A stretch of 64,000 nucleotides of DNA from NCBI GenBank assembly GCA_963828505.1, contig CAWHFM010000009.1, positions 180,872-244,871 on the forward strand. Reading direction: 5' to 3'. Positions 1,101-28,999 of the stretch are shown here, one piece after another. The notes below the pieces were generated by a model that saw nothing but the letters and a program-made list of their open reading frames with translations, had not been told where the DNA came from and did not search any database. The translations under genes were made by a program, and so were the position numbers. Positions within the stretch are counted from its first letter, which is position 1; every line of letters begins with the position of its first letter. This DNA is from an uncultured Acidimicrobiaceae bacterium. Its GTDB lineage: Bacteria > Actinomycetota > Acidimicrobiia > Acidimicrobiales > RAAP-2.

Positions 1101-2012
1101 ATGACAGAGCGACGGATCGGATCCATTCACAGCCACGCGTTCTGGGATCGTTCTATCGAACCGGTTCTGCGGGTTGCTGCCGGCACGGAGGTAGAGCTCG
1201 AGCTTCTGGACGCCAGCGGCGGTCAGGTCTCCCCGGAGGATGGATCCGATGCGATCGGTCGTCTCGACTTCGCGCAGGTGAATCCCTGCACAGGTCCGAT
1301 TGCCGTCGATGGTCTTGAGCCCGGAGATGGTCTGGTCGTCACCATCCTCGACATCTCCCCGGCACGATGGTCATGGACAGCAAATATCCCCGGATTCGGC
1401 CTCTTGGCCGACGATTTCCCGGATGCTCAACTTTGGATCTCGAAAGTCGACCACAGTGGGGTGCACACCCCGATCGGGGTCGAGCTACCAGCTCGCCCGA
1501 TGATTGGAACCATTGGTGTCGCTCCAGCAGCGCCCGGGCCATGGCCGATCCTCGTTCCCGCGAGCCACGGCGGAAACATGGACATCTGCCAGATGGGGGC
1601 GGGAACGCAGCTCCATCTACCGGTTCTCGTGTCCGGAGCCTTGTTCTCCGCCGGGGACGCCCATGCGCTTCAGGGAGATGGCGAGGTCTGCGGGACCGGA
1701 GCAGAGACTGGTTCCACGCTAACGGTGCGTCTGGACCGAGCCGACGCTCCGCATGCGGGATCGCCATGGCTCGTTCATGAGGCCCCTGCGCTCGACACCC
1801 GATTCGTGACGACGACCGGCATTGGTCCCGATCTGTTCGATGCGGCCCGCGAAGCCACCCGTCGAGGCATCGATAGTGTTGTCGCACGAACATCCCTAAA
1901 CCCCGTCGATGCCTACCTCCTGCTCAGTCTCATCGCTGACCTCCGGATCTCCGAGGTAGTGGACGCACCCAACTGGGTCGTGAGCCTCCACATCCCGGCA
2001 CGCTACCTCTGA
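1101..2012 (+). CDS. acetamidase/formamidase (FmdA/AmdA) family protein
   Basis: Sequence pattern typical of the family (SHGGNMD, GDAHALQGDGEVCGT). ATG 1101 follows a G-rich SD; TTG 1089 is an alternative start. Confidence 0.75.
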   Translation: MTERRIGSIHSHAFWDRSIEPVLRVAAGTEVELELLDASGGQVSPEDGSDAIGRLDFAQVNPCTGPIAVDGLEPGDGLVVTILDISPARWSWTANIPGFGLLADDFPDAQLWISKVDHSGVHTPIGVELPARPMIGTIGVAPAAPGPWPILVPASHGGNMDICQMGAGTQLHLPVLVSGALFSAGDAHALQGDGEVCGTGAETGSTLTVRLDRADAPHAGSPWLVHEAPALDTRFVTTTGIGPDLFDAAREATRRGIDSVVARTSLNPVDAYLLLSLIADLRISEVVDAPNWVVSLHIPARYL

Positions 2013-2274
2013 GCCAAAATTCGGCCCAGCCGTTCGGCCTGGGGCGGAACGACGGCTCAAAGAAACCAACGACGCTTCGGCCAGACCCGTCGAAGCTCTC
2101 GGCCGTCGCGACCGTGAATCGACGACCTGCGCCGTTCACCGATCATGAGCTCAGTTGGGTGGGCCACCCGAGAGCCAGCGAGCCGCTCTTGGGGGAAGAC
2201 AGCTGAATGGTTCGACGGAAGCGGATGCGTTGGGCGGCCGCTTTCGGAGCGATTGCGACGCTTTCTCATGCGCA

Positions 2275-2559
2275 TTACGTGCCGGGGGCTGGGTGCTCGT
2301 GCTGCACGGGGTGCTCATGCTGCACGGGGTGCTCGTGCTGCACGGGGTGCTCGTGCTGCACGGGGTGCTTGTGAGACGGTCCGGCGTGGCCTTCCTGACC
2401 GGTCGGCGGGGTGACCTCACCGCGGAAACCCAGCACTCGGAGGAAGAAGAGACCAATCCGGTTTGGGCCTTTGCGCAGCTGCGCCGCCTTGGCCTCGGCC
2501 TCATGACCGTCAGTCACAGGAATTCGGCGTGGTCCCGCGTACCGTACACGTCTGCTCAC
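2275..2559 (-). CDS. small His-rich protein with C-terminal (HEHPVQ)n repeat, putative metal-binding
   Basis: 94-aa ORF with GC3-rich codons. Hydrophobic core GLFFLRVLGF, then HKHPVQ plus 4x HEHPVQ encoded by an 18-bp tandem repeat. Start uncertain (GTG near 2508 also possible). Confidence 0.4.
   Translation of the reverse strand: MSRRVRYAGPRRIPVTDGHEAEAKAAQLRKGPNRIGLFFLRVLGFRGEVTPPTGQEGHAGPSHKHPVQHEHPVQHEHPVQHEHPVQHEHPAPGT
2293..2375. repeat. 18-bp tandem repeat gtgctcgtgctgcacggg, about 4.6 copies
   Basis: Read directly: units at 2293, 2311 (one G>A change), 2329 and 2347, plus a degenerate fifth unit. Confidence 0.9.
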
Positions 2560-2739
2560 GCCCGCATCCTATTTGGACCATATCGGGCTGAGGGAGAACG
2601 GCTGGTCTCCGGGAGGTCCACAAAGATGAGGGTGTCCGACCGTTCCATTCGTTCTTCAAGTGACGGCCAAGGCCGCCAGCCGTCAATAATCCGACGATCA
2701 AAGGACATTACGGAACGAATCCGCTCCCGGGTCGCTGCG

Positions 2740-3228
2740 TCATTGCTCAGCGTGATAGAGCTGTTTGGCCAGCTGGATGTGCCCGAGGTGTTCGCGAGCG
2801 TGGCCGTAGTTTCCGATCAACCAGGTCAACCCAGAGCGCACTTCCCCGGCGGGCAGAGTTGGAAGGGCGAAGACCGACATCAGGCGGTCGGCCTCGATGC
2901 GCGGTGTCACCGCTGCGACGAGGTCGTCGGCTTCGTCAATCAATTCGAGTACCCCATCCATGGTGAGTTTCTGGCCCACGAACTCTGCCGCTCGATCTCG
3001 TTCGCAGGGCAGGCCGGCCACGCACAGAAGCGTCTCGGCTTCGGACCCGACGAGGTGGGTGATGACAGTGGAGATAGAGTTCGCACCCCTCGTCGGTACC
3101 CAGTTGAGGGCATCGACTTCAAGCCCGTCGAGTTCGTCGCGCAGCTGGTCATGGACCTGATGGAGAAGGGCGAGAACCACGCTGGCCACCTCTTCACCAT
3201 CAGACGCCGCAGGAAGGGGCACGCCCAA
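2740..3228 (-). CDS. DinB family protein
   Basis: DinB_2-like helical pattern with His motifs (ITHLVGSE, YGHAREHLGHI). Low-GC AAGGA stretch upstream. Start uncertain (TTG 3228, GTG 3222 or ATG 3309). Confidence 0.65.
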   Translation of the reverse strand: MGVPLPAASDGEEVASVVLALLHQVHDQLRDELDGLEVDALNWVPTRGANSISTVITHLVGSEAETLLCVAGLPCERDRAAEFVGQKLTMDGVLELIDEADDLVAAVTPRIEADRLMSVFALPTLPAGEVRSGLTWLIGNYGHAREHLGHIQLAKQLYHAEQ

Positions 3229-17980: not shown

Positions 17981-18931
17981 ATGTCGAACAAGTCAAACCG
18001 CAATCCCGCATCAACCGGCAACGGGGCCCGTCGCCCCGAGTCGTTCCGCAACCGCCACCGCGTCCTGACCGCGCTCGTTCCGGTCATGCTGGTCGTTGCC
18101 ATCGTGACGACCATGGTCGTGATCAAGGCAACATCGGGAAGCTCAGGGTCGCCTTCGGCCGCCGCATCGCCCGCCTCGGCCCGGGCCGGAGGAGCCGGCG
18201 CGCCCGTTGACACCGGGACGACCGCGCTGTCGAGCAGCGTGGCCAGCTCACTCTCGTCGGTGACCGCCGCCACCTTGGCCACGGTCGGCGCGCCGTCGGG
18301 CATCACGTTGCCGAACAGGGTCGCCGGCAGCTCAGTGTCCCGGGACGCCCAGGGCAAGGCCGTGGTCACCTACATCGGTGCCGAGTACTGCCCCTTCTGT
18401 GCGGCAGAGCGTTGGGCCGTTGCGGTTGCCTTGTCGCGCTTCGGCACCTTCTCGGACCTGTCGGGTACGCACTCGTCGAGCACGGACGTCTACCCCGACA
18501 CCCAGACCCTCTCGTTCTACGGGTCGCACTACACGAGCCCGTACATCGACTTCCAACCGGTCGAGGAGACGACGAACCAGCCGTCGGGCGGTGGTTACGC
18601 CACGCTGCAGGTACCGACGGCGGCTCAGAACGCGCTGTTCTCCCGCTACGACGTCGCCCCGTACGCGAGCGAACCCGGAAGCATCCCCTTCGTCGACATC
18701 GGGAACCGGTACGTGATCTCGGGAGCGAGCTATTCGCCCGCAGTGTTGCAGGGCCTGTCGCGCCTCCAGATCGCGGCTGACCTCGACGATCCCTCGAGCC
18801 CAGTCGCACAGGCCATCGACGGGACGGCCAACGCCATCACCGCCGCACTCTGCTCGGTCACAGGGAACCAGCCGAGTGCGGTGTGCGATTCCCCGGTGAT
18901 CGTGGCCCTGGCCAAGAAGATGGGGGCGTGA
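17981..18931 (+). CDS. DUF929 domain protein (thioredoxin-like, CPFC motif)
   Basis: AGGAGG SD. N-terminal [18 protein letters not shown] motif characteristic of DUF929. Confidence 0.75.
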
Positions 18932-19410
18932 GCGTGTCGGTCGCCTGGCGGCCGCGATCGGTGCCGGCGGGGGTGGTGGGGAGCTCCCTGAGCCTCTCGC
19001 TGATCGCGGTGGCGGTCGCCTCGTACTTGACGGTCGCGCACTACGCGGACCCGGCTGCGCTGGCGTGTCCCGACACCGGGATCGTGAACTGCACCCTGGT
19101 CACGACCAGCTCGTGGTCGGCGATCGCCGGCGTGCCGCTCGCCGTCCTCGGCCTCGCGTGGGCGCTGGTGATGACCGGGCTCTGTGTGCCCTGGGTGTGG
19201 CGTTCGACGGCACGTTGGGTCGACACGGCGCGCCTCGTCACGTCGGCTGCGGGCGCCGCCATGGTCGTCTACCTCGTCTATGTGGAGCTCTTCCGGTTGA
19301 GTGCCATCTGCTTGTGGTGCACGGCCATGCACGTCACGGCTGTCTGCCTCTTCGGGGTCGTCCTCAGCGCCCGGGCGCCCGCGCTCGGGCGCGGCCCGGC
19401 GGACGGGTGA
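18928..19410 (+). CDS. vitamin K epoxide reductase (VKOR) family protein
   Basis: GTG overlaps the upstream stop (GTGA). Four TM helices. Loop cysteines ([10 protein letters not shown]) and a CLWC active-site motif. Confidence 0.75.
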
Positions 19411-22214: not shown

Positions 22215-24467
22215 TCAGGGCCCTCGCTCGGCGAGCACCTGCGGCGTGCCGGAGTCGTCCGCCGTCGATCCGACCGCGCTGCACCGCGTCGTCGTGGCGC
22301 ACGAGATCCCGGCGAACGACCCGCCGTCGGGAAGGGTCGGGGTCGTCTCGAGCGACCACGAGGTGCCGTCCCACGCTTCGGCGACTGGTTGACCGCCCGC
22401 GGACCCGGTTGCATGGCACACTGCCTCGGCGCGGCACGAGACGGCCGTGAGAGAACCACCACCACTGAGCGGCGCGATGGTCTGGAGAGACCACGACGAC
22501 CCGTCCCAGTCCATGGCCAGCGGATTCCCCCCCGACTCACCCACGGCGGTGCACGCGTTCGGGGCGCTGCACGACACCGCGGCCAGCGTGCTCGCCGTCT
22601 GGCCGGTCGAGTCGGGTGTCGGCTCGATGCTCCACGTCGATCCGTTCCAGGTCGCGGCCAGAGTGAGATCGACCCCGTTGACACTCGCCCAGGAGCCGAC
22701 CGCGGTGCAGGAGTTCGTCGACGGGCACGACACCGAGGTGAAGGCGCTCACCTCCTCGCCGGGCGGGTTGGGGGACGGCACGACCGTCCACGACGACCCG
22801 TCCCAGCCCTCGACGAGGGTGAGTTCAATGCCCGACGCGTCCTGGTAGGAGCCGACGGCCACGCACGATGTGTCGGAAGCGCACGACACCGCTGGGACGT
22901 CGATCTCGGTGTCACCACGCCCGGGGGAGTGAAGCCGCTCCAAGGTCCAGCCGGCCTCGTCCCACACCTCGGCGAACGACTTGAAGAAGGGGTTGTTGAC
23001 GACGAACGAGCCCACGGCGACACACGCCGAGGACGACGGGCACGAGACCCCCTCCAAGGTCGTGTTCCGCGAACCCGCCGGGTCCGGCGTGGGCTCGACC
23101 GTCCAGGCCGACGCGCTGCGACGCTCGGCGAGAGATTCCTCGGTCCCACCGCTCCAGTAGGAGCCGACCGCCGTGCACGTGCTCGCCGCGCTGCACGAGA
23201 CGTCGCCGAGGCTGCTCTGGGTGGTGCCGTCGAGCGACGCGACCGTCTCGGTGGTCCAGGCGGTGCCGTTCCAGCTCTCGGCGAGGGGACCCGCTCCAAC
23301 GACGGTGCACTGGTCGGCTGACGGGCACGACACGGCGTTCAAGGAACCGCGGCCAGAACCGGGCAGAATCTTCCAGGCCGTGCCGTTCCAGCTCTCGGCC
23401 AGGACATGGGACTGGAGCCCGGTTCGGTAGAACTCCCCGACGGCGAGGCACGATTTCGCGGAGGCGCACGACAGCGTGCCCAGGGCGGCCTGGGTGGCCC
23501 CCGCCGGCGTCGGCACCTGTTCGATGGTCCACGTCGCTCCGTTCCAGACCTCGGAGAGGGTGGCGAAGCCCTCAACCTTGTTGACGGTGTACCCCGCGGT
23601 TACGCAGTCTGAGGCCGAGGAACACGAGACGTCGCTCAACGTGACGTTTTTCACTCCGGGAGGACGGGCGGGGCTCAGGAGTGACCACTGCGATCCGTCC
23701 CACCTCTCCGCCAGTGGGGCACCGGAGTTGGCGACGCCCACGGCGATGCAGTCGGATGCGCGAGGGCACGACACGCCGAAGAGCGAACCGAGGGCGGCCA
23801 TTCCCGGCGCCGCTTCTATCGCCCAGCGCGTGCCGTTCCACCCCTCGACGAGCACCTTGGCCGTCCCGACGTCGTTCTCGTCGTAGCCCACCGCCTGGCA
23901 GGAGTTGGTCGATGCGCACGAAACAGTGAACAGGTAGCTCGGGTCCACTCGGGGTCGTGCCGGCGCGGGCTGAAGGGTCCAGACCCCGTCCTCCCAGGAC
24001 TCGGCGAACGGGAGGGTGTCTCCGCAACACGTCTCCTCGTACCCGACGGCGGTGCACTCGGTGGGGGACGGGCACGACACTCCGGTGAGGTTGCTCAAGG
24101 TGGCGCCCGGCGGGTCGGGTGTCGCCTGCGCGGCCCACTGGGACCCGTTCCAGCGCTCGGCCACGGTCACGGCAGAGGTCGTCCCGGGCTGCGAGGCGCC
24201 CACCGTCGAGGTGCCGACCGTGGTGCATGCGTCGGGCGCAGAGCACGAGACGTCGTTCAGGGAGACGATCGGAGAACCCGCCGGGTTGGCCGCGTGTTGC
24301 ACGACCCACCCCGGGGAGGCGGCGCCGGCGGTGTGCACCCATCCACTCAGGAGAAGAACCGCACCGAGGACGGCGACGGCTGCTGTCCATCCGGCCAGGC
24401 CCTGCAGTCTTGGCACAGATCCGACCTCCACCTCTCCCCGAGGGGTCCCCGCGGACCGCTCCATCAT
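22215..24467 (-). CDS. secreted 14-repeat Cys-pair WNGxxW repeat protein (predicted double beta-propeller)
   Basis: N-terminal signal/anchor helix. 14 repeats of about 48 aa of form AExWNGxxW...P...L..VSCxSxxxCxAVG. Confidence 0.8.
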   Translation of the reverse strand: MMERSAGTPRGEVEVGSVPRLQGLAGWTAAVAVLGAVLLLSGWVHTAGAASPGWVVQHAANPAGSPIVSLNDVSCSAPDACTTVGTSTVGASQPGTTSAVTVAERWNGSQWAAQATPDPPGATLSNLTGVSCPSPTECTAVGYEETCCGDTLPFAESWEDGVWTLQPAPARPRVDPSYLFTVSCASTNSCQAVGYDENDVGTAKVLVEGWNGTRWAIEAAPGMAALGSLFGVSCPRASDCIAVGVANSGAPLAERWDGSQWSLLSPARPPGVKNVTLSDVSCSSASDCVTAGYTVNKVEGFATLSEVWNGATWTIEQVPTPAGATQAALGTLSCASAKSCLAVGEFYRTGLQSHVLAESWNGTAWKILPGSGRGSLNAVSCPSADQCTVVGAGPLAESWNGTAWTTETVASLDGTTQSSLGDVSCSAASTCTAVGSYWSGGTEESLAERRSASAWTVEPTPDPAGSRNTTLEGVSCPSSSACVAVGSFVVNNPFFKSFAEVWDEAGWTLERLHSPGRGDTEIDVPAVSCASDTSCVAVGSYQDASGIELTLVEGWDGSSWTVVPSPNPPGEEVSAFTSVSCPSTNSCTAVGSWASVNGVDLTLAATWNGSTWSIEPTPDSTGQTASTLAAVSCSAPNACTAVGESGGNPLAMDWDGSSWSLQTIAPLSGGGSLTAVSCRAEAVCHATGSAGGQPVAEAWDGTSWSLETTPTLPDGGSFAGISCATTTRCSAVGSTADDSGTPQVLAERGP

Positions 24468-24515: not shown

Positions 24516-24818
24516 TTACTGGACGGCGATCATCGTCACGGTCGCGGTTGCCGGAAGCGTGTCGGTACCGCATTGGGTCTCGCAATTCACAGTCGCGGTC
24601 GGGGATCCGTAGAAGTCGCCCGCCGGGATCGTCTGCCAGCTGATGTTCGCAAAGTCGACTCCCGCGTTGGTGCCTGTCCCGCCGAACGCTGGCGGCCCGA
24701 CGTCATTTCCGGCGAAGTTCAGGTAGCACTCGAACTCGTCCTGCAGGTTGTAGACCTCCTTCCCGATGGTCACCGACGCCTCCACGAGAGCCGACGTCGC
24801 TCCGGCCGGCAGCGTCAT
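24516..24818 (-). CDS. small hypothetical protein (100 aa)
   Basis: Strong GC3 bias. MTLPAGATSALVEASVTIGKEVYNLQDEFECYLNF... No SD or signal peptide seen. Only the 3' end of ORF 24516..25373 is plausible. Confidence 0.4.
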   Translation of the reverse strand: MTLPAGATSALVEASVTIGKEVYNLQDEFECYLNFAGNDVGPPAFGGTGTNAGVDFANISWQTIPAGDFYGSPTATVNCETQCGTDTLPATATVTMIAVQ

Positions 24819-24957: not shown

Positions 24958-26733
24958 TCACGTCGGATTGGGAGTCGGAGCTGCCGCCACCGCGCCGGGT
25001 GCGCAGGCTCGGGGGTCCCACGGCGCCAGCTTGGTCGTGGGGGGATTGGGCGCAGAGATCGCCCCGACCGCAGCGCCAGAGGCGGCGGGCACGGAAGTGG
25101 TCGTCGTCGTCGTCGTGCTCGGCGATGTCGAGGCTGTGCCCGTCGTGCCCGTCGCCGGCGCCGGCGCCGATGGAGCGTTGACCGCGAATTGCGAACCGGT
25201 GACCACGGTGACCTGTGCGCCGTCGACCACCGCGGCAGGGTCGTACGCCATGACGGCGGCACCCGACAACGAGCGGACGACCGATTCCGCCGCGGCCTCG
25301 GTCGCGGCGTCACGCGAGCCGTAGTACACGTAGGTCTCCGCGACGTCCCCGACGGGTGGCGTGTCACCGACACCGACGAGGTGGTACCCGAGTGCCGTCA
25401 GGGCGGTCGCGGTGTCGGTGGCCTGGTTGTAGACACCCGTGCCGTTGAGGACCGAGACGGACACCGACGCGGGCGGAGGGAGCGGGTTGCCTGTCATCGA
25501 ATCGGTCGTCGGGCCGATCCCGAGGAGCTGCTCAATCGAGGCCAGGTCCTGGGCCTCGGCCGGGAACTCGACATCGCCGTAGTTGGAGCCTTCGTACACG
25601 AGCCCGCCGCCGCCCTCGGGGTCGGAGACCACCTGGACGGGCAGGGTGAGCTGGGGTACCGAGTTGATGTCGACGGAGTGGAAGTCCAAGACGAGGTTCA
25701 CCATGTCGCTGACGGGCCACGTCTGGTCGAAGGTCAGGTCGGCTTTGAGGGAGTTGATCAGGTTGAAGTCGGAGATTGGGTTGCCGAGCCCCTGTTTGCC
25801 CATGGTGCTGGCGAGCACGCGCAGGAACTCGTGGTCTCGCCGTATGCGTGCCAGGTCGCTCTCGTTTTCCTGCTGCCAGGAGTACGGGTCGTCGGGGTTC
25901 GACTGCGGCGTCTCATAGCGCAGGTGACGGGCCCGGACGACCTGGAGTGCCTGGGTGCCGTCGAGGTGCACGCATGCAGCTTTCGTCTGGTTGAGACCGG
26001 AGCTCACGGGCTGGTCGCCGTCGGCTCCACCGCCGGTCGGTGCCCAGTCGAAGATGGCGTCGGGGAACGACATGTTGATGCCACCGAGCGCCTGGACGAT
26101 GTTGGCGAACTGGTCGAAGTTGAGCGAGACCGCGTGCTGGATGGGTATGCCGAGGTCCTCCTCGACCGCGGCCACGACTTGGGTCAGACCCTGGTAGAGG
26201 CCGGCGTCGATTTTGTACGCCCCGTTGTTGCGGGCGTTGGGCACGAAGAGATCTCGGGGAATGGAGAGCAGCGCCAGGCGATGGTGGGCCGGATCGGCGT
26301 GGAGGATCATCATCACGTCGCTGTTGACTCCGCTGACCCCCTGCGAACACAGCCCGTACGCCGGGTTCTGGACGGCCAGGGCGCAGCGGGAGGTCGAGCC
26401 GACCATCAGGATGTTCTCGGTGCCCAGCTCTTGTCCTGACTTGAAGGCTGAATGAAGGCCTCGAACGGTGACTCGATGCAGGTCGTGGGTCAGGTAGTAG
26501 ACGTAGCCGGCCCCCGCGACCATCAGGACCAGCAGCGCGGCCAGGCCGGCCAGGACCCATTTGCGCCAGCGCTGACGGCCACGAGCTCGGGCATGACGTC
26601 CTCCGGTGCTCCGTGACCTGCGGGCGCGCTCGATCTCAGCCCCGAGCTCGTCCAAGCCGTCGAGAGGGGTTTGTGGCCGAGAGCCAACTCCCTCGAGGGG
26701 ATCCTGTTCTCCATCGTTCCCGCGAACTGTCAC
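24958..26733 (-). CDS. LCP (LytR-CpsA-Psr) family cell-envelope phosphotransferase with LytR_C domain and Thr/Pro-rich tail
   Basis: N-terminal TM. NSDVMMILHADP...LLSIPRDL...YKIDAGLY LCP core. LytR_C-like VSVLNGTGVYNQATDTATAL. Confidence 0.85.
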   Translation of the reverse strand: MTVRGNDGEQDPLEGVGSRPQTPLDGLDELGAEIERARRSRSTGGRHARARGRQRWRKWVLAGLAALLVLMVAGAGYVYYLTHDLHRVTVRGLHSAFKSGQELGTENILMVGSTSRCALAVQNPAYGLCSQGVSGVNSDVMMILHADPAHHRLALLSIPRDLFVPNARNNGAYKIDAGLYQGLTQVVAAVEEDLGIPIQHAVSLNFDQFANIVQALGGINMSFPDAIFDWAPTGGGADGDQPVSSGLNQTKAACVHLDGTQALQVVRARHLRYETPQSNPDDPYSWQQENESDLARIRRDHEFLRVLASTMGKQGLGNPISDFNLINSLKADLTFDQTWPVSDMVNLVLDFHSVDINSVPQLTLPVQVVSDPEGGGGLVYEGSNYGDVEFPAEAQDLASIEQLLGIGPTTDSMTGNPLPPPASVSVSVLNGTGVYNQATDTATALTALGYHLVGVGDTPPVGDVAETYVYYGSRDAATEAAAESVVRSLSGAAVMAYDPAAVVDGAQVTVVTGSQFAVNAPSAPAPATGTTGTASTSPSTTTTTTTSVPAASGAAVGAISAPNPPTTKLAPWDPRACAPGAVAAAPTPNPT

Positions 26734-27363
26734 TCTCTCACCTTGTGGTCATCGACCGGCGCCAGCGTCCCCGTGTCGACGCGCGAGGAGACACCAGTAA
26801 CGACGCCCCGATACGGACAGGGTATTCGGACGGGCGAGCCGTTCCGGGTCACGAGGCTCACCTGGACAAAGACGTCCGGATGGTCGCCTATCGGCCGCGC
26901 AACCTCCCAGCCGCTCCGTGAGCTGAACAGTCCGGTTGCACGACGTACCCGCTGTGGGTGCTGGAAGCGCCGTCTTCTGGGAGAGCTCACCAGCTCCGGG
27001 CTTACCTGCAGCGAGAAGCAGGAGAATCCGGGACCACGACGATGATCCCGGATGCTCGTGGGGTCAGTGCGTTGCGGTCCACGTAGCACCTCCGTCGGAG
27101 CCGCCTCCTGCGACCACGCGCGGTCCGCTGACCCGACCTGTGCTCCATGGGGTGATGGGCGGCAGCGGTAGCGGCAGTGGAGGCCGAGGTGACGAGCAGT
27201 CCAACGAAGATCAGGGGGCCGAGCTCGCTCACCACTTTCGAGGAGCGATGTCGGGCGACACGGGCCAACTTGCGCTCGACCACCTAGCGAAGGGGCGTGC
27301 TGTCGTCCGCAAGCCGACGCCGAAACGCCCGTCGATGTCTCCGCGAGACCTTCGGCCTTCGGC

Positions 27364-27744
27364 TCACATTCCTCGACAGGTGACGTCCAGCGTCACGACC
27401 CGACGGCTTCCGATTGAGATCGGCCCGGCGGCGCAGGCTCCCTGCGTCCCGTTTGAGACGAATCTGGGCGAGTGGCCCACAACGGTATAGAAACCAGGAG
27501 GAACCGGTATGTCGTAGCGGCCGCTGCCCGGCACAACTGCTGAATATGTCTGGCCCCCGCGGTTGGTCGCCGTGACTCGACCGGGGATGGCACCCCCGTT
27601 GGACGGCTTGATCACCCCGACGGACATCCGAAACGTGCCCCGGATCGTCCCTTCTGGTGGCGGAAGCGCGCTCGAACACGCGCTCAACAGTAAGCCCGCT
27701 GCCGCCACGAGCAGCGCCGACGCTGGAAGCACCCTGGTCCCCAT
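27364..27744 (-). CDS. lipoprotein with carboxypeptidase-regulatory-like beta-sandwich
   Basis: Signal peptide with lipobox LLLSAC. GxVxxxxGGxxxxAxVxxxGxYxxxVPPGxY pattern. Confidence 0.6.
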   Translation of the reverse strand: MGTRVLPASALLVAAAGLLLSACSSALPPPEGTIRGTFRMSVGVIKPSNGGAIPGRVTATNRGGQTYSAVVPGSGRYDIPVPPGFYTVVGHSPRFVSNGTQGACAAGPISIGSRRVVTLDVTCRGM

Positions 27745-27832: not shown

Positions 27833-28999
27833 TCAGTTGACTTCGGCCAGGGTTTCTGAGGACCCGCCCAGGTTGAAGGACCCCACGGCCCAACACTTGC
27901 CACCCTGGGCGCAGGCGACCGCGTAGAAATCGCTGAACTCGGAGCCGTTCGGGGTAGCCGTCTGCACGATCTTCCAGCTGGTGCCGTTCCACCGCTCCGC
28001 CAGCGTGGAGCTACCGGCCTCGAAGCCGACCGCCCAGCACTTCTTGAGCGACACGCAGACCACGCTGTCTCCTCCGAGACCGCTGGCACCGTACGCGAAG
28101 CCCGAGGTTCCGGCCGCGGTGGCGGGTGTAGCTGCTATCGACCACCGTCGCCCGTTCCATTGCTCGGCGAGCGTCGCGGAAGCGCCCTGGCCGGTCGCCC
28201 AGCAGTCGGACGTCGAGACACATGAGACCCCGTTGAGGACATTGTCGGTTGACGCGGTGTTGTGTGTCTTCACGATCGACCAGCTCGTGCCGTTCCAGTG
28301 TTCGGCGAGGGTCTGTCCGAAGTTCGCCGTGTCGCCGACCGCCCAGCAGTCGTTGCTGTTGATGCAGGTCGTCGCGTTCAAGAAGTTGTACTGATCGTCG
28401 GGGAGCGACGGTGTCGGTACGACCGTCCAGTCCGTGCCGTTCCAATGTTCGGCCAAGGTCTGAGTGGCCGGAGGATCCTGACTCGTGAAGTAGGAGCCGA
28501 CCGTCCAGCAGTCGGCGCTGCTCGTGCAGGTCACACCGAACAGACTGGCGCTGCTGCCCGGAGCCGACGGCGTGGCGACGGTGGTCCAACTCTGCCCGTT
28601 CCATTGCTCGGCCAGCGCGACGGTGTCCCCCCCGGATGAAGATGTGCGACCGACAGCCCAGCAGTCCGAGGCGTCGATGCAATCGACTGCCTCGAGCGCG
28701 GTGGTGGAAGTCGGCGCGGCAGCGGCTGCCAGCGTCCAAGTGGTGCCGTCCCAGTGCTCAATGAGAGCGGCCGTCGGGTATGCGGTACCAACCGCCCAGC
28801 AGTCGGAGCTGCTGACACAGCTGACCGCGTTGAGGCCGTCGGATGCGGTGCTGTTCGGGGTAGCGGTGATCGAAAAATGAGAAGCAGCAGATCCAACGGA
28901 AAGGCCGGCAGCCGACCCCCCCAGGAACAGAGCGGTGAGCCCCCAAGCGCCGACCAAGGCGAAGAGGGTGGGACGTCCGGGCCACCGATAGAACCGCAT
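27833..28999 (-). CDS. secreted 7-repeat Cys-pair WNGxxW repeat protein (predicted 7-bladed propeller), paralog of 22215..24467
   Basis: AAGGGGAGGGG SD. Signal peptide. 7 repeats of form LAEHWNGTxW...VSCxSxxDCWAVG. Confidence 0.8.
   Translation of the reverse strand: MRFYRWPGRPTLFALVGAWGLTALFLGGSAAGLSVGSAASHFSITATPNSTASDGLNAVSCVSSSDCWAVGTAYPTAALIEHWDGTTWTLAAAAAPTSTTALEAVDCIDASDCWAVGRTSSSGGDTVALAEQWNGQSWTTVATPSAPGSSASLFGVTCTSSADCWTVGSYFTSQDPPATQTLAEHWNGTDWTVVPTPSLPDDQYNFLNATTCINSNDCWAVGDTANFGQTLAEHWNGTSWSIVKTHNTASTDNVLNGVSCVSTSDCWATGQGASATLAEQWNGRRWSIAATPATAAGTSGFAYGASGLGGDSVVCVSLKKCWAVGFEAGSSTLAERWNGTSWKIVQTATPNGSEFSDFYAVACAQGGKCWAVGSFNLGGSSETLAEVN

Follow-up and report, generated by a model that had tools for sequence, protein, structure and literature searches.

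The DNA analysed here is a stretch of 64,000 nucleotides, hereafter the window, from an uncultured Acidimicrobiaceae bacterium (GTDB lineage Acidimicrobiales, RAAP-2), and corresponds to positions 180,872 to 244,871 of contig CAWHFM010000009.1 in assembly GCA_963828505.1. Its focal element is the gene of P0001, a repeat protein encoded on the minus strand by an open reading frame (ORF) at 22215-24467, which translates into 750 residues, ends with a stop codon at 22215-22217 and contains no internal stops, just as an earlier note on this DNA had reported. The guanine-cytosine (GC) content at its three codon positions is 0.60/0.64/0.87 in a genome with 67-70% GC, which indicates a coding frame; the plus-strand ORFs that overlap it have a pattern opposite to this coding signature. 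Regarding its start, no ribosome-binding site is seen upstream of the annotated ATG at 24467, and an in-frame GTG at 24416 follows a GGAGG Shine-Dalgarno sequence (24425-24429) at a spacing of 8 nt. This GTG is also where the database gene call of 733 residues, P0006, begins, and the N-terminus of P0007, an ortholog with 69% identity, reads VPRL..., equivalent to the same position. Because the Shine-Dalgarno spacing, the gene call and the ortholog agree, the true gene probably spans 22215..24416 (minus strand) and its product is probably 733 residues long; the 750 residues given in the note hold for the ORF and not for the protein, the first 17 codons being probably untranslated. The residue numbers used below follow the 750-residue frame.

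As for its export, the N-terminus of P0001 has a basic stretch, a hydrophobic helix of 18 residues and then AGA|AS, so that the hydrophobic helix of a secreted or anchored protein described in the note is present. These elements make up a Sec-type signal peptide (24321..24416, minus strand; residues 18-49) composed of PRLQGLAG, WTAAVAVLGAVLLLSGWV and HTAGA|AS, and from this sequence we infer cleavage at AGA|AS. In an alignment of 50 sequences built from P0001 and its homologs, hereafter A1, most N-termini have the n-h-c regions of a signal peptide; the AlphaFold2 model of P0001 has a helix at residues 31-38, with a low predicted local distance difference test (pLDDT) score.

After the signal peptide, P0001 consists of 14 repeats of about 50 residues each, containing a C-x5-C motif and an ExW[N/D]GxxW hairpin. 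A regular-expression count found exactly 14 C-x5-C motifs, spaced by 44-57 residues, and 12 exact W[NDE][GDE]xxW motifs, in agreement with the 14 tandem two-cysteine WNGxxW units counted in the note. The protein has 30 cysteines: 28 fall within the repeats and the other two are the vicinal pair C147-C148. In A1, the repeat cysteines are invariant almost without exception, as are most of the glycine and tryptophan residues of the hairpins, and most homologs carry exactly 28 cysteines; this regularity of repeats and cysteines is far beyond chance. The assignment of one cysteine pair to each blade is supported by these 14 regular and nearly invariant motifs, and each C-x5-C probably forms one disulfide per blade. 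The vicinal cysteines (window ~24024-24029, minus strand) belong to the B-C loop that follows blade 2, in the sequence YEETCCGDTLPF, and are missing from P0007, which has 28 cysteines; they may form a vicinal disulfide or be a lineage-specific site.

Repeats 1-7 (23217..24320, minus strand; residues ~50-417) and repeats 8-14 (22218..23216, minus strand; residues 418-750) make up the nominal first and second seven-bladed propellers, with the boundary taken from the repeat count. The chain opens with an orphan strand D (GWVVQ) and the second set ends with a strand C (VLAERGP, of which VLAER is the strand); because of this arrangement, the N-terminal strand D probably closes the blade begun by the C-terminus, a so-called velcro closure. 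The blades of P0001 share about 40% identity whatever the offset between them (37% at offset 7), a pattern that lends no support to a recent duplication from seven to 14 blades.

AlphaFold2, run on A1, returned for P0001 an all-beta model with four strands per repeat and a mean pLDDT of 86.6; the predicted template modelling (pTM) score was 0.59, a value to be expected for two lobes of uncertain mutual orientation. In a Foldseek search of this model against the Protein Data Bank (PDB), the top matches were the double seven-bladed propellers of the GH74 family (E 8e-13 to 6e-12), intermixed with tandem WD40 double propellers. Ycf48, a closed seven-bladed ring, superposes on part of the model with a TMt of 0.62-0.63, which argues against a single ring of 14 blades. 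The window also encodes a paralog with seven repeats, P0002 (27833..28999, minus strand; 388 residues), which has a signal peptide and the variant C-x5-C-W-A-V-G; its model is a single seven-bladed propeller with a pLDDT of 85.5 and a pTM of 0.84, and its Foldseek matches are the CylK propeller, Ycf48 (TMt 0.67-0.71) and RACK1 (0.70). Because of the matches to Ycf48 and to double seven-bladed proteins, and because of the P0002 model, P0001 is predicted to be partitioned into two seven-bladed propellers. The earlier note had proposed this architecture, with structure prediction and Foldseek as a check, and for both P0001 and P0002 that check yielded a propeller model.

Regarding the family of the repeat, P0001 has no match above threshold in Pfam and NCBIfam, the best being DUF6087 at 13.7 bits, and neither phmmer nor a 50-sequence profile found any match among the PDB sequences, even at E 10. 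The placement comes from relatives encoded in the same genome. A search of this genome with PF14870 (PSII_BNR, cut-off 27 bits) found matches in two open frames that are also matched, weakly or strongly, by P0001: one encodes a protein of 744 residues (contig 10), and the other a protein of 588 residues with a C-terminal SGNH hydrolase domain (contig 4). The two score above the cut-off, at 60.2 bits for the 588-residue protein and 41.4 bits for the other, and share with P0001 the hairpin L-x-x-V-S-C-x5-C-x-A-V-G; at the place of E-x-W-N-G-x-x-W they carry canonical Asp-boxes, such as TTDGGVSW, STGDGGIAW and TRDGGMVW. In a BLASTP comparison, P0001 aligns with the contig-10 paralog blade for blade over ~580 residues (E 4e-43), with WNG placed on DGG, as in VEGWNGTRW over STGDGGIAW. 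By hhalign, the profile of the paralog family matches the contig-4 protein at 98.6%, and A1 matches an NCBI "YCF48-related protein" from Candidatus Nephthysia bennettiae (P0444) at 99.9% (E 2.8e-33, 560 columns); this protein carries the same cysteine hairpin along with canonical Asp-boxes. When the contig-10 protein was searched against a large protein collection, two groups appeared together within the range E 1e-40 to 1e-60: proteins annotated with PF14870/PF02012/PF15902/PF13088 ("photosystem II stability/assembly factor-like"), and WNGxxW-family proteins that the search with P0001 had also retrieved.

Because paralogs with the same cysteine hairpin match PSII_BNR and align to P0001, its repeat is, at the level of sequence homology, a derived BNR/Asp-box blade of the Ycf48 type. 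It is this sequence bridge that assigns the superfamily; the fold search could not do so by itself, since the WD40 propellers score close to the Asp-box ones. The statement of the note that the repeat could not be placed in BNR is therefore overturned by the PF14870 paralogs, the BLASTP alignment and the hhalign result; its companion statement, that the family is not recognised, stands for direct matches to curated entries of Pfam, NCBIfam and the PDB, and falls for the superfamily, which is reached transitively.

The Asp-box is defined as X-X-(S/t)-X-(D/n)-X-G-X-(T/s)-(W/f/y), located in the hairpin between strands 3 and 4, and the D/n at position 5 was obligatory in all the structures known in 2009 (PMC2716378). 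P0001 keeps the place of this hairpin (strands C-D), the glycine at position 7 and the tryptophan at position 10, and has Trp at position 5 and Glu at position 3 in nearly every blade, so that its repeats depart from the canonical motif while their homology to the superfamily is established transitively. It is because of these two replacements that the curated models miss P0001. The spacing [N/D]-x-x-x-W resembles that of the "short Asp-box" without the S/T of the latter. The P0001 family is thus a structural variant within the Ycf48/BNR Asp-box superfamily, from which it branches as a very large group, unnamed and unstudied, and it does not amount to a new type of protein.

Among the known systems, P0001 is most similar to the YCF48-related proteins (PF14870; P0444), with which it shares a blade of ~45-50 residues, the hairpin L-x-G-[VI]-S-C-x5-C-x-A-V-G, secretion, blades in multiples of about seven and the same soil taxa. 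It differs from them in having E-x-W-[N/D]-G-x-x-W in place of T-x-D-G-G-x-x-W, and in going undetected by the PSII_BNR, BNR and Sortilin-Vps10 models; the YCF48-related proteins of non-photosynthetic bacteria are themselves functionally uncharacterised. As for Ycf48/HCF136 (PDB 2XBG, 5OJ3, 5OJR), it is a seven-bladed propeller of the Asp-box type and, together with CylK, the best single-domain structural match, with an identity of 12-15%. Ycf48 acts in the biogenesis of photosystem II (PSII) in the thylakoid, where it binds D1, and it is a single propeller that is not known to carry a cysteine pair in each blade. P0001, unlike Ycf48, is predicted to be a double propeller, and its closest members are found in uncultured Actinomycetota, in Dormibacterota and in a Chloroflexi bin, all non-photosynthetic lineages; it shares only fold and ancestry with Ycf48/HCF136, not membership of the PSII-assembly family. 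Finally, the Pfam profiles DUF2510 (PF10708) and DUF6087 (PF19565) hold a hairpin similar to R-Y-W-D-G-x-x-W and give marginal or sub-threshold scores on the repeats of P0001; only 15-25 model residues match, with no full-domain match, and the likeness is a coincidence of motifs, or at most a shared hairpin, and not family membership. The entries DUF2510, DUF6087, Lar, SBDS_C, Toxin_2 and Rax2 recorded on homologs were likewise discarded as cumulative short-motif matches with no passing stretch, and a literature search for DUF2510, DUF6087, PF10708 and PF19565 found no papers.

The distribution of conservation over the blade gives some indications about function. In A1, the information content is 2.8-3.7 bits for strands A-D and ~2.2-2.9 bits for the two conserved turns; it is 1.9 bits for the D-A loops, where only a repeated T-P-x-P-x-G is kept, and 1.16 bits for the B-C loops. 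Among the 50 homologs, the invariant or near-invariant residues are all C, W, G, E, L, A, V, S or P of the repeat core, the Glu found once per blade in A-E-x-W is the sole charged residue conserved in 80% or more of the sequences, and there is no unique conserved acid, His or Ser as a catalytic candidate. In the standard propeller topology, one face carries the A-B and C-D turns, and the opposite face, to which ligands usually bind, carries the B-C and D-A loops; because this topology puts the variable loops on the ligand face, the latter is likely the recognition surface. Relatives fuse the module to dockerin, fn3, Big_3_5/PKD, TIG, subtilase with an I9 propeptide, RHS repeats, FG-GAP and RCC1, and the Asp-box paralog mentioned above is fused to an SGNH hydrolase; these extracellular partners fit a targeting or binding module.

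Taken together, we consider it probable, with good though not full confidence, that P0001 is a Sec-secreted, non-catalytic binding scaffold built as a double propeller of modified Asp-box blades. According to this proposal, the chain would be exported by Sec and its 14 four-stranded repeats would fold into two seven-bladed beta-propellers spanning ~700 residues. The A-B hairpin of each blade would be closed by the C-x5-C disulfide, formed outside the cytoplasm by a VKOR/DsbA-like system, and the C-D hairpin would derive from S-x-D-x-G-x-x-W by conversion into E-x-W-[N/D]-G-x-x-W, with Trp for the defining Asp and Glu for Ser. The product, one of ~19 paralogs in the genome, would be a rigid extracellular binding platform stabilised by oxidation, whose variable loops would set the ligand specificity; the suggestion that this ligand is a glycan or another extracellular polymer is made with low confidence.

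Some points weigh against this proposal. The term "binding scaffold" derives from exclusion and from the domain partners, and no anchoring motif was found in P0001. The pTM of 0.59 leaves the geometry between the two propellers open, and Foldseek scores the WD40 double propellers almost equally to the Asp-box ones. DSSP puts the two cysteines of each pair diagonally across the hairpin and not directly opposite, a placement that in the model is compatible with a disulfide, and no proof of one. Last, the exact 7+7 partition, the velcro closure, a bonding distance between the cysteines and the faces on which the loops lie are all putative.

Three other explanations were weighed. That P0001 is a glycoside hydrolase, of the GH74 type or another Asp-box kind, binding and cleaving a polysaccharide in the cleft between its propellers, appears very improbable, even if the GH74 xyloglucanases (PDB 6P2M, 7KN8, 2EBS, 5FKQ) are the top Foldseek matches and have the same 7+7 architecture, with tandem seven-bladed propellers in one secreted chain of ~700-770 residues, and most of the characterised Asp-box propellers are glycosidases (PMC2716378). 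The GH74 enzymes have their catalytic aspartates in the cleft between the propellers, and their blades are irregular, only some with Asp-boxes (PMC2716378); in P0001, unlike GH74, all 14 blades are regular, each has a cysteine pair, and there is no conserved candidate catalytic residue. The two differ in that their structural similarity reaches a TM of only 0.35-0.41 with 11-14% identity; moreover, P0001 has no sequence or profile match to any PDB chain, and in the 50 homologs there is no conserved acidic pair, no conserved acid besides the Glu of each blade, nor any conserved residue outside the repeat core. The occurrence of the module with 7, 14, 21 or more blades across relatives, and as an appendage to real enzymes (S8 protease, SGNH), suits a binding module better.

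P0001 could also be a structural protein of a surface coat or matrix, whose rigid, stapled propellers self-assemble into a layer with no specific small ligand; the family is abundant and multi-copy, with giant multi-propeller members of up to 3,727 residues, and the dockerin fusions imply assembly into larger extracellular complexes. This option is unlikely, given that P0001 has no anchoring domain and that loops varying on one face fit a diversified recognition better than a uniform lattice. The last explanation, quite improbable, is that P0001 acts in the cell envelope in partnership with the LCP ligase encoded nearby, for instance by binding the wall glycopolymer that the ligase attaches. 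In its favour, the LCP gene, a small ORF, and the genes of P0001 and P0002 are co-oriented on the minus strand within 7 kb, P0001 is secreted, and the host phylum generally has no outer membrane. However, the 79 related loci have no LCP gene within 6 kb and no other conserved neighbour; upstream of the 69% ortholog, the 780 bp that remain before the contig end hold a glyoxalase gene and lack an LCP gene; the ~19 paralogs are scattered over the genome; and P0001 lacks wall-binding motifs (LysM, SLH, LPXTG). The link to the cell-wall ligase implied in the note is accordingly not upheld, although the note had correctly placed both the adjoining LCP gene, at 24958-26733, and the paralog with seven repeats, at 27833-28999.

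The family of P0001 is very large. An exhaustive HMMER search of 1.84 billion representatives of clusters at 50% identity found 50,887 proteins at E <= 1e-3, with members up to 3,727 residues long, and 18,749 at E <= 1e-30. The matches from named genomes are all metagenome-assembled genomes of Acidimicrobiales/Acidimicrobiaceae, Solirubrobacterales, Streptosporangiaceae, Dormibacterota and one Chloroflexi bin, recovered largely from soil and peat. The module occurs in 22 of the 151 genomes sampled from the phylum of the window, usually in multiple copies and sometimes in tandem arrays, and the genome of the window itself (4.07 Mb, 86% complete) has 38 matching segments in ~19 loci.

A further and more speculative idea, possible but doubtful at this stage, is that the ExWNGxxW / C-x5-C propellers form a hyper-expanded, loop-diversified repertoire for secreted recognition, a disulfide-hardened "lectin/receptor library" in uncultured soil Actinomycetota, Dormibacterota and Chloroflexota. 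Each paralog would bind a partner or extracellular polymer of its own, and the module would be borrowed for targeting by proteases, esterases, dockerin-bearing proteins and similar enzymes. If this were true, few uncharacterised families of binding domains in soil metagenomes would be larger than this one, with its ~51,000 clusters at 50% identity. Apart from this idea, the Ycf48/BNR placement gives a name and a fold to tens of thousands of "hypothetical proteins" from a family that is mostly confined to uncultured soil lineages, and that is invisible to the curated domain libraries because its Asp-box is mutated. It also shows that Trp can take the place of the Asp-box aspartate, in this case in blades that bear a cysteine staple as well, and such regular, highly symmetric and probably disulfide-stapled blades could interest protein engineers.

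Additional observations concern the other copies of the module. In the genome of the window, several paralog segments contain in-frame stops (TAG, TAA, TGA): contig 24, 29594-30124; contig 9, 12473-12862; contig 4, 48654-48995; and contig 16, 45530-45913. This suggests pseudogenised or frameshifted copies, or assembly errors. Tandem arrays of at least five propeller genes or segments occur in two other genomes of the phylum (G032, contig 1, 536-555 kb; G044, contig 14, 4.4-8.6 kb) and indicate local gene amplification. The 588-residue paralog of contig 4 (at ~55.2-57.0 kb; positions 1237-3003 of locus L081, plus strand) is a secreted, cysteine-stapled Asp-box propeller (PSII_BNR, 60 bits) joined to a C-terminal SGNH/DUF459 esterase domain, which hints that propellers of this class have carbohydrate or acyl substrates.

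As for the formation of the disulfides, a DUF929 (thioredoxin-like) gene and a VKOR gene are located at 17981..19410 on the plus strand, ~3 kb from the P0001 gene, and overlap each other at 18883-18931; in actinobacteria, VKOR takes the place of DsbB. The two genes are also syntenic in the locus of P0007 (L080). P0001 and P0002 together would need ~21 disulfides, close to this pair of genes. DUF929 and VKOR could thus oxidise the 14 (+7) cysteine pairs, although proximity is no proof of a dedicated link.

Regarding the genomic neighbourhood, the LCP gene adjoining P0001 (24958-26733, minus strand) encodes the LytR_cpsA_psr and LytR_C domains. A tblastn search with ten neighbours from the window found no LCP, VKOR, DUF929, thioesterase or DUF885 in the 79 related loci, and de novo clustering of 673 flanking ORFs gave no conserved partner, the commonest being an ABC ATPase present in 7 of the 79 loci. 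The locus of the 69% ortholog keeps the downstream side with the thioesterase, DUF885 and VKOR genes, and the glyoxalase gene upstream of it is on the opposite strand. A scan of 21.0-29.5 kb was uninformative, with no promoter called and 3 terminator-like sites where 2.7 were expected.

The small ORF between the LCP and P0001 genes (24516-24818, minus strand) encodes 100 residues, begins with MTLPAGATSALVEASV..., ends 48 nt upstream of the P0001 ORF and is beta-rich, with 3 cysteines and no signal peptide from this ATG; P0008, a homolog with 52% identity, is also preceded by a same-strand gene of 100 residues, which touches the contig end. Between the LCP gene and P0002, an ORF of 126 residues (27364-27744, minus strand) has a lipoprotein-type signal (LLLSAC) and no Pfam match. 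Finally, of three broken frames located upstream of the LCP gene (26740-27283, minus strand), one contains a single Asp-box-like motif, GSDGGATW, which may be the decayed remnant of another propeller gene or the product of chance.

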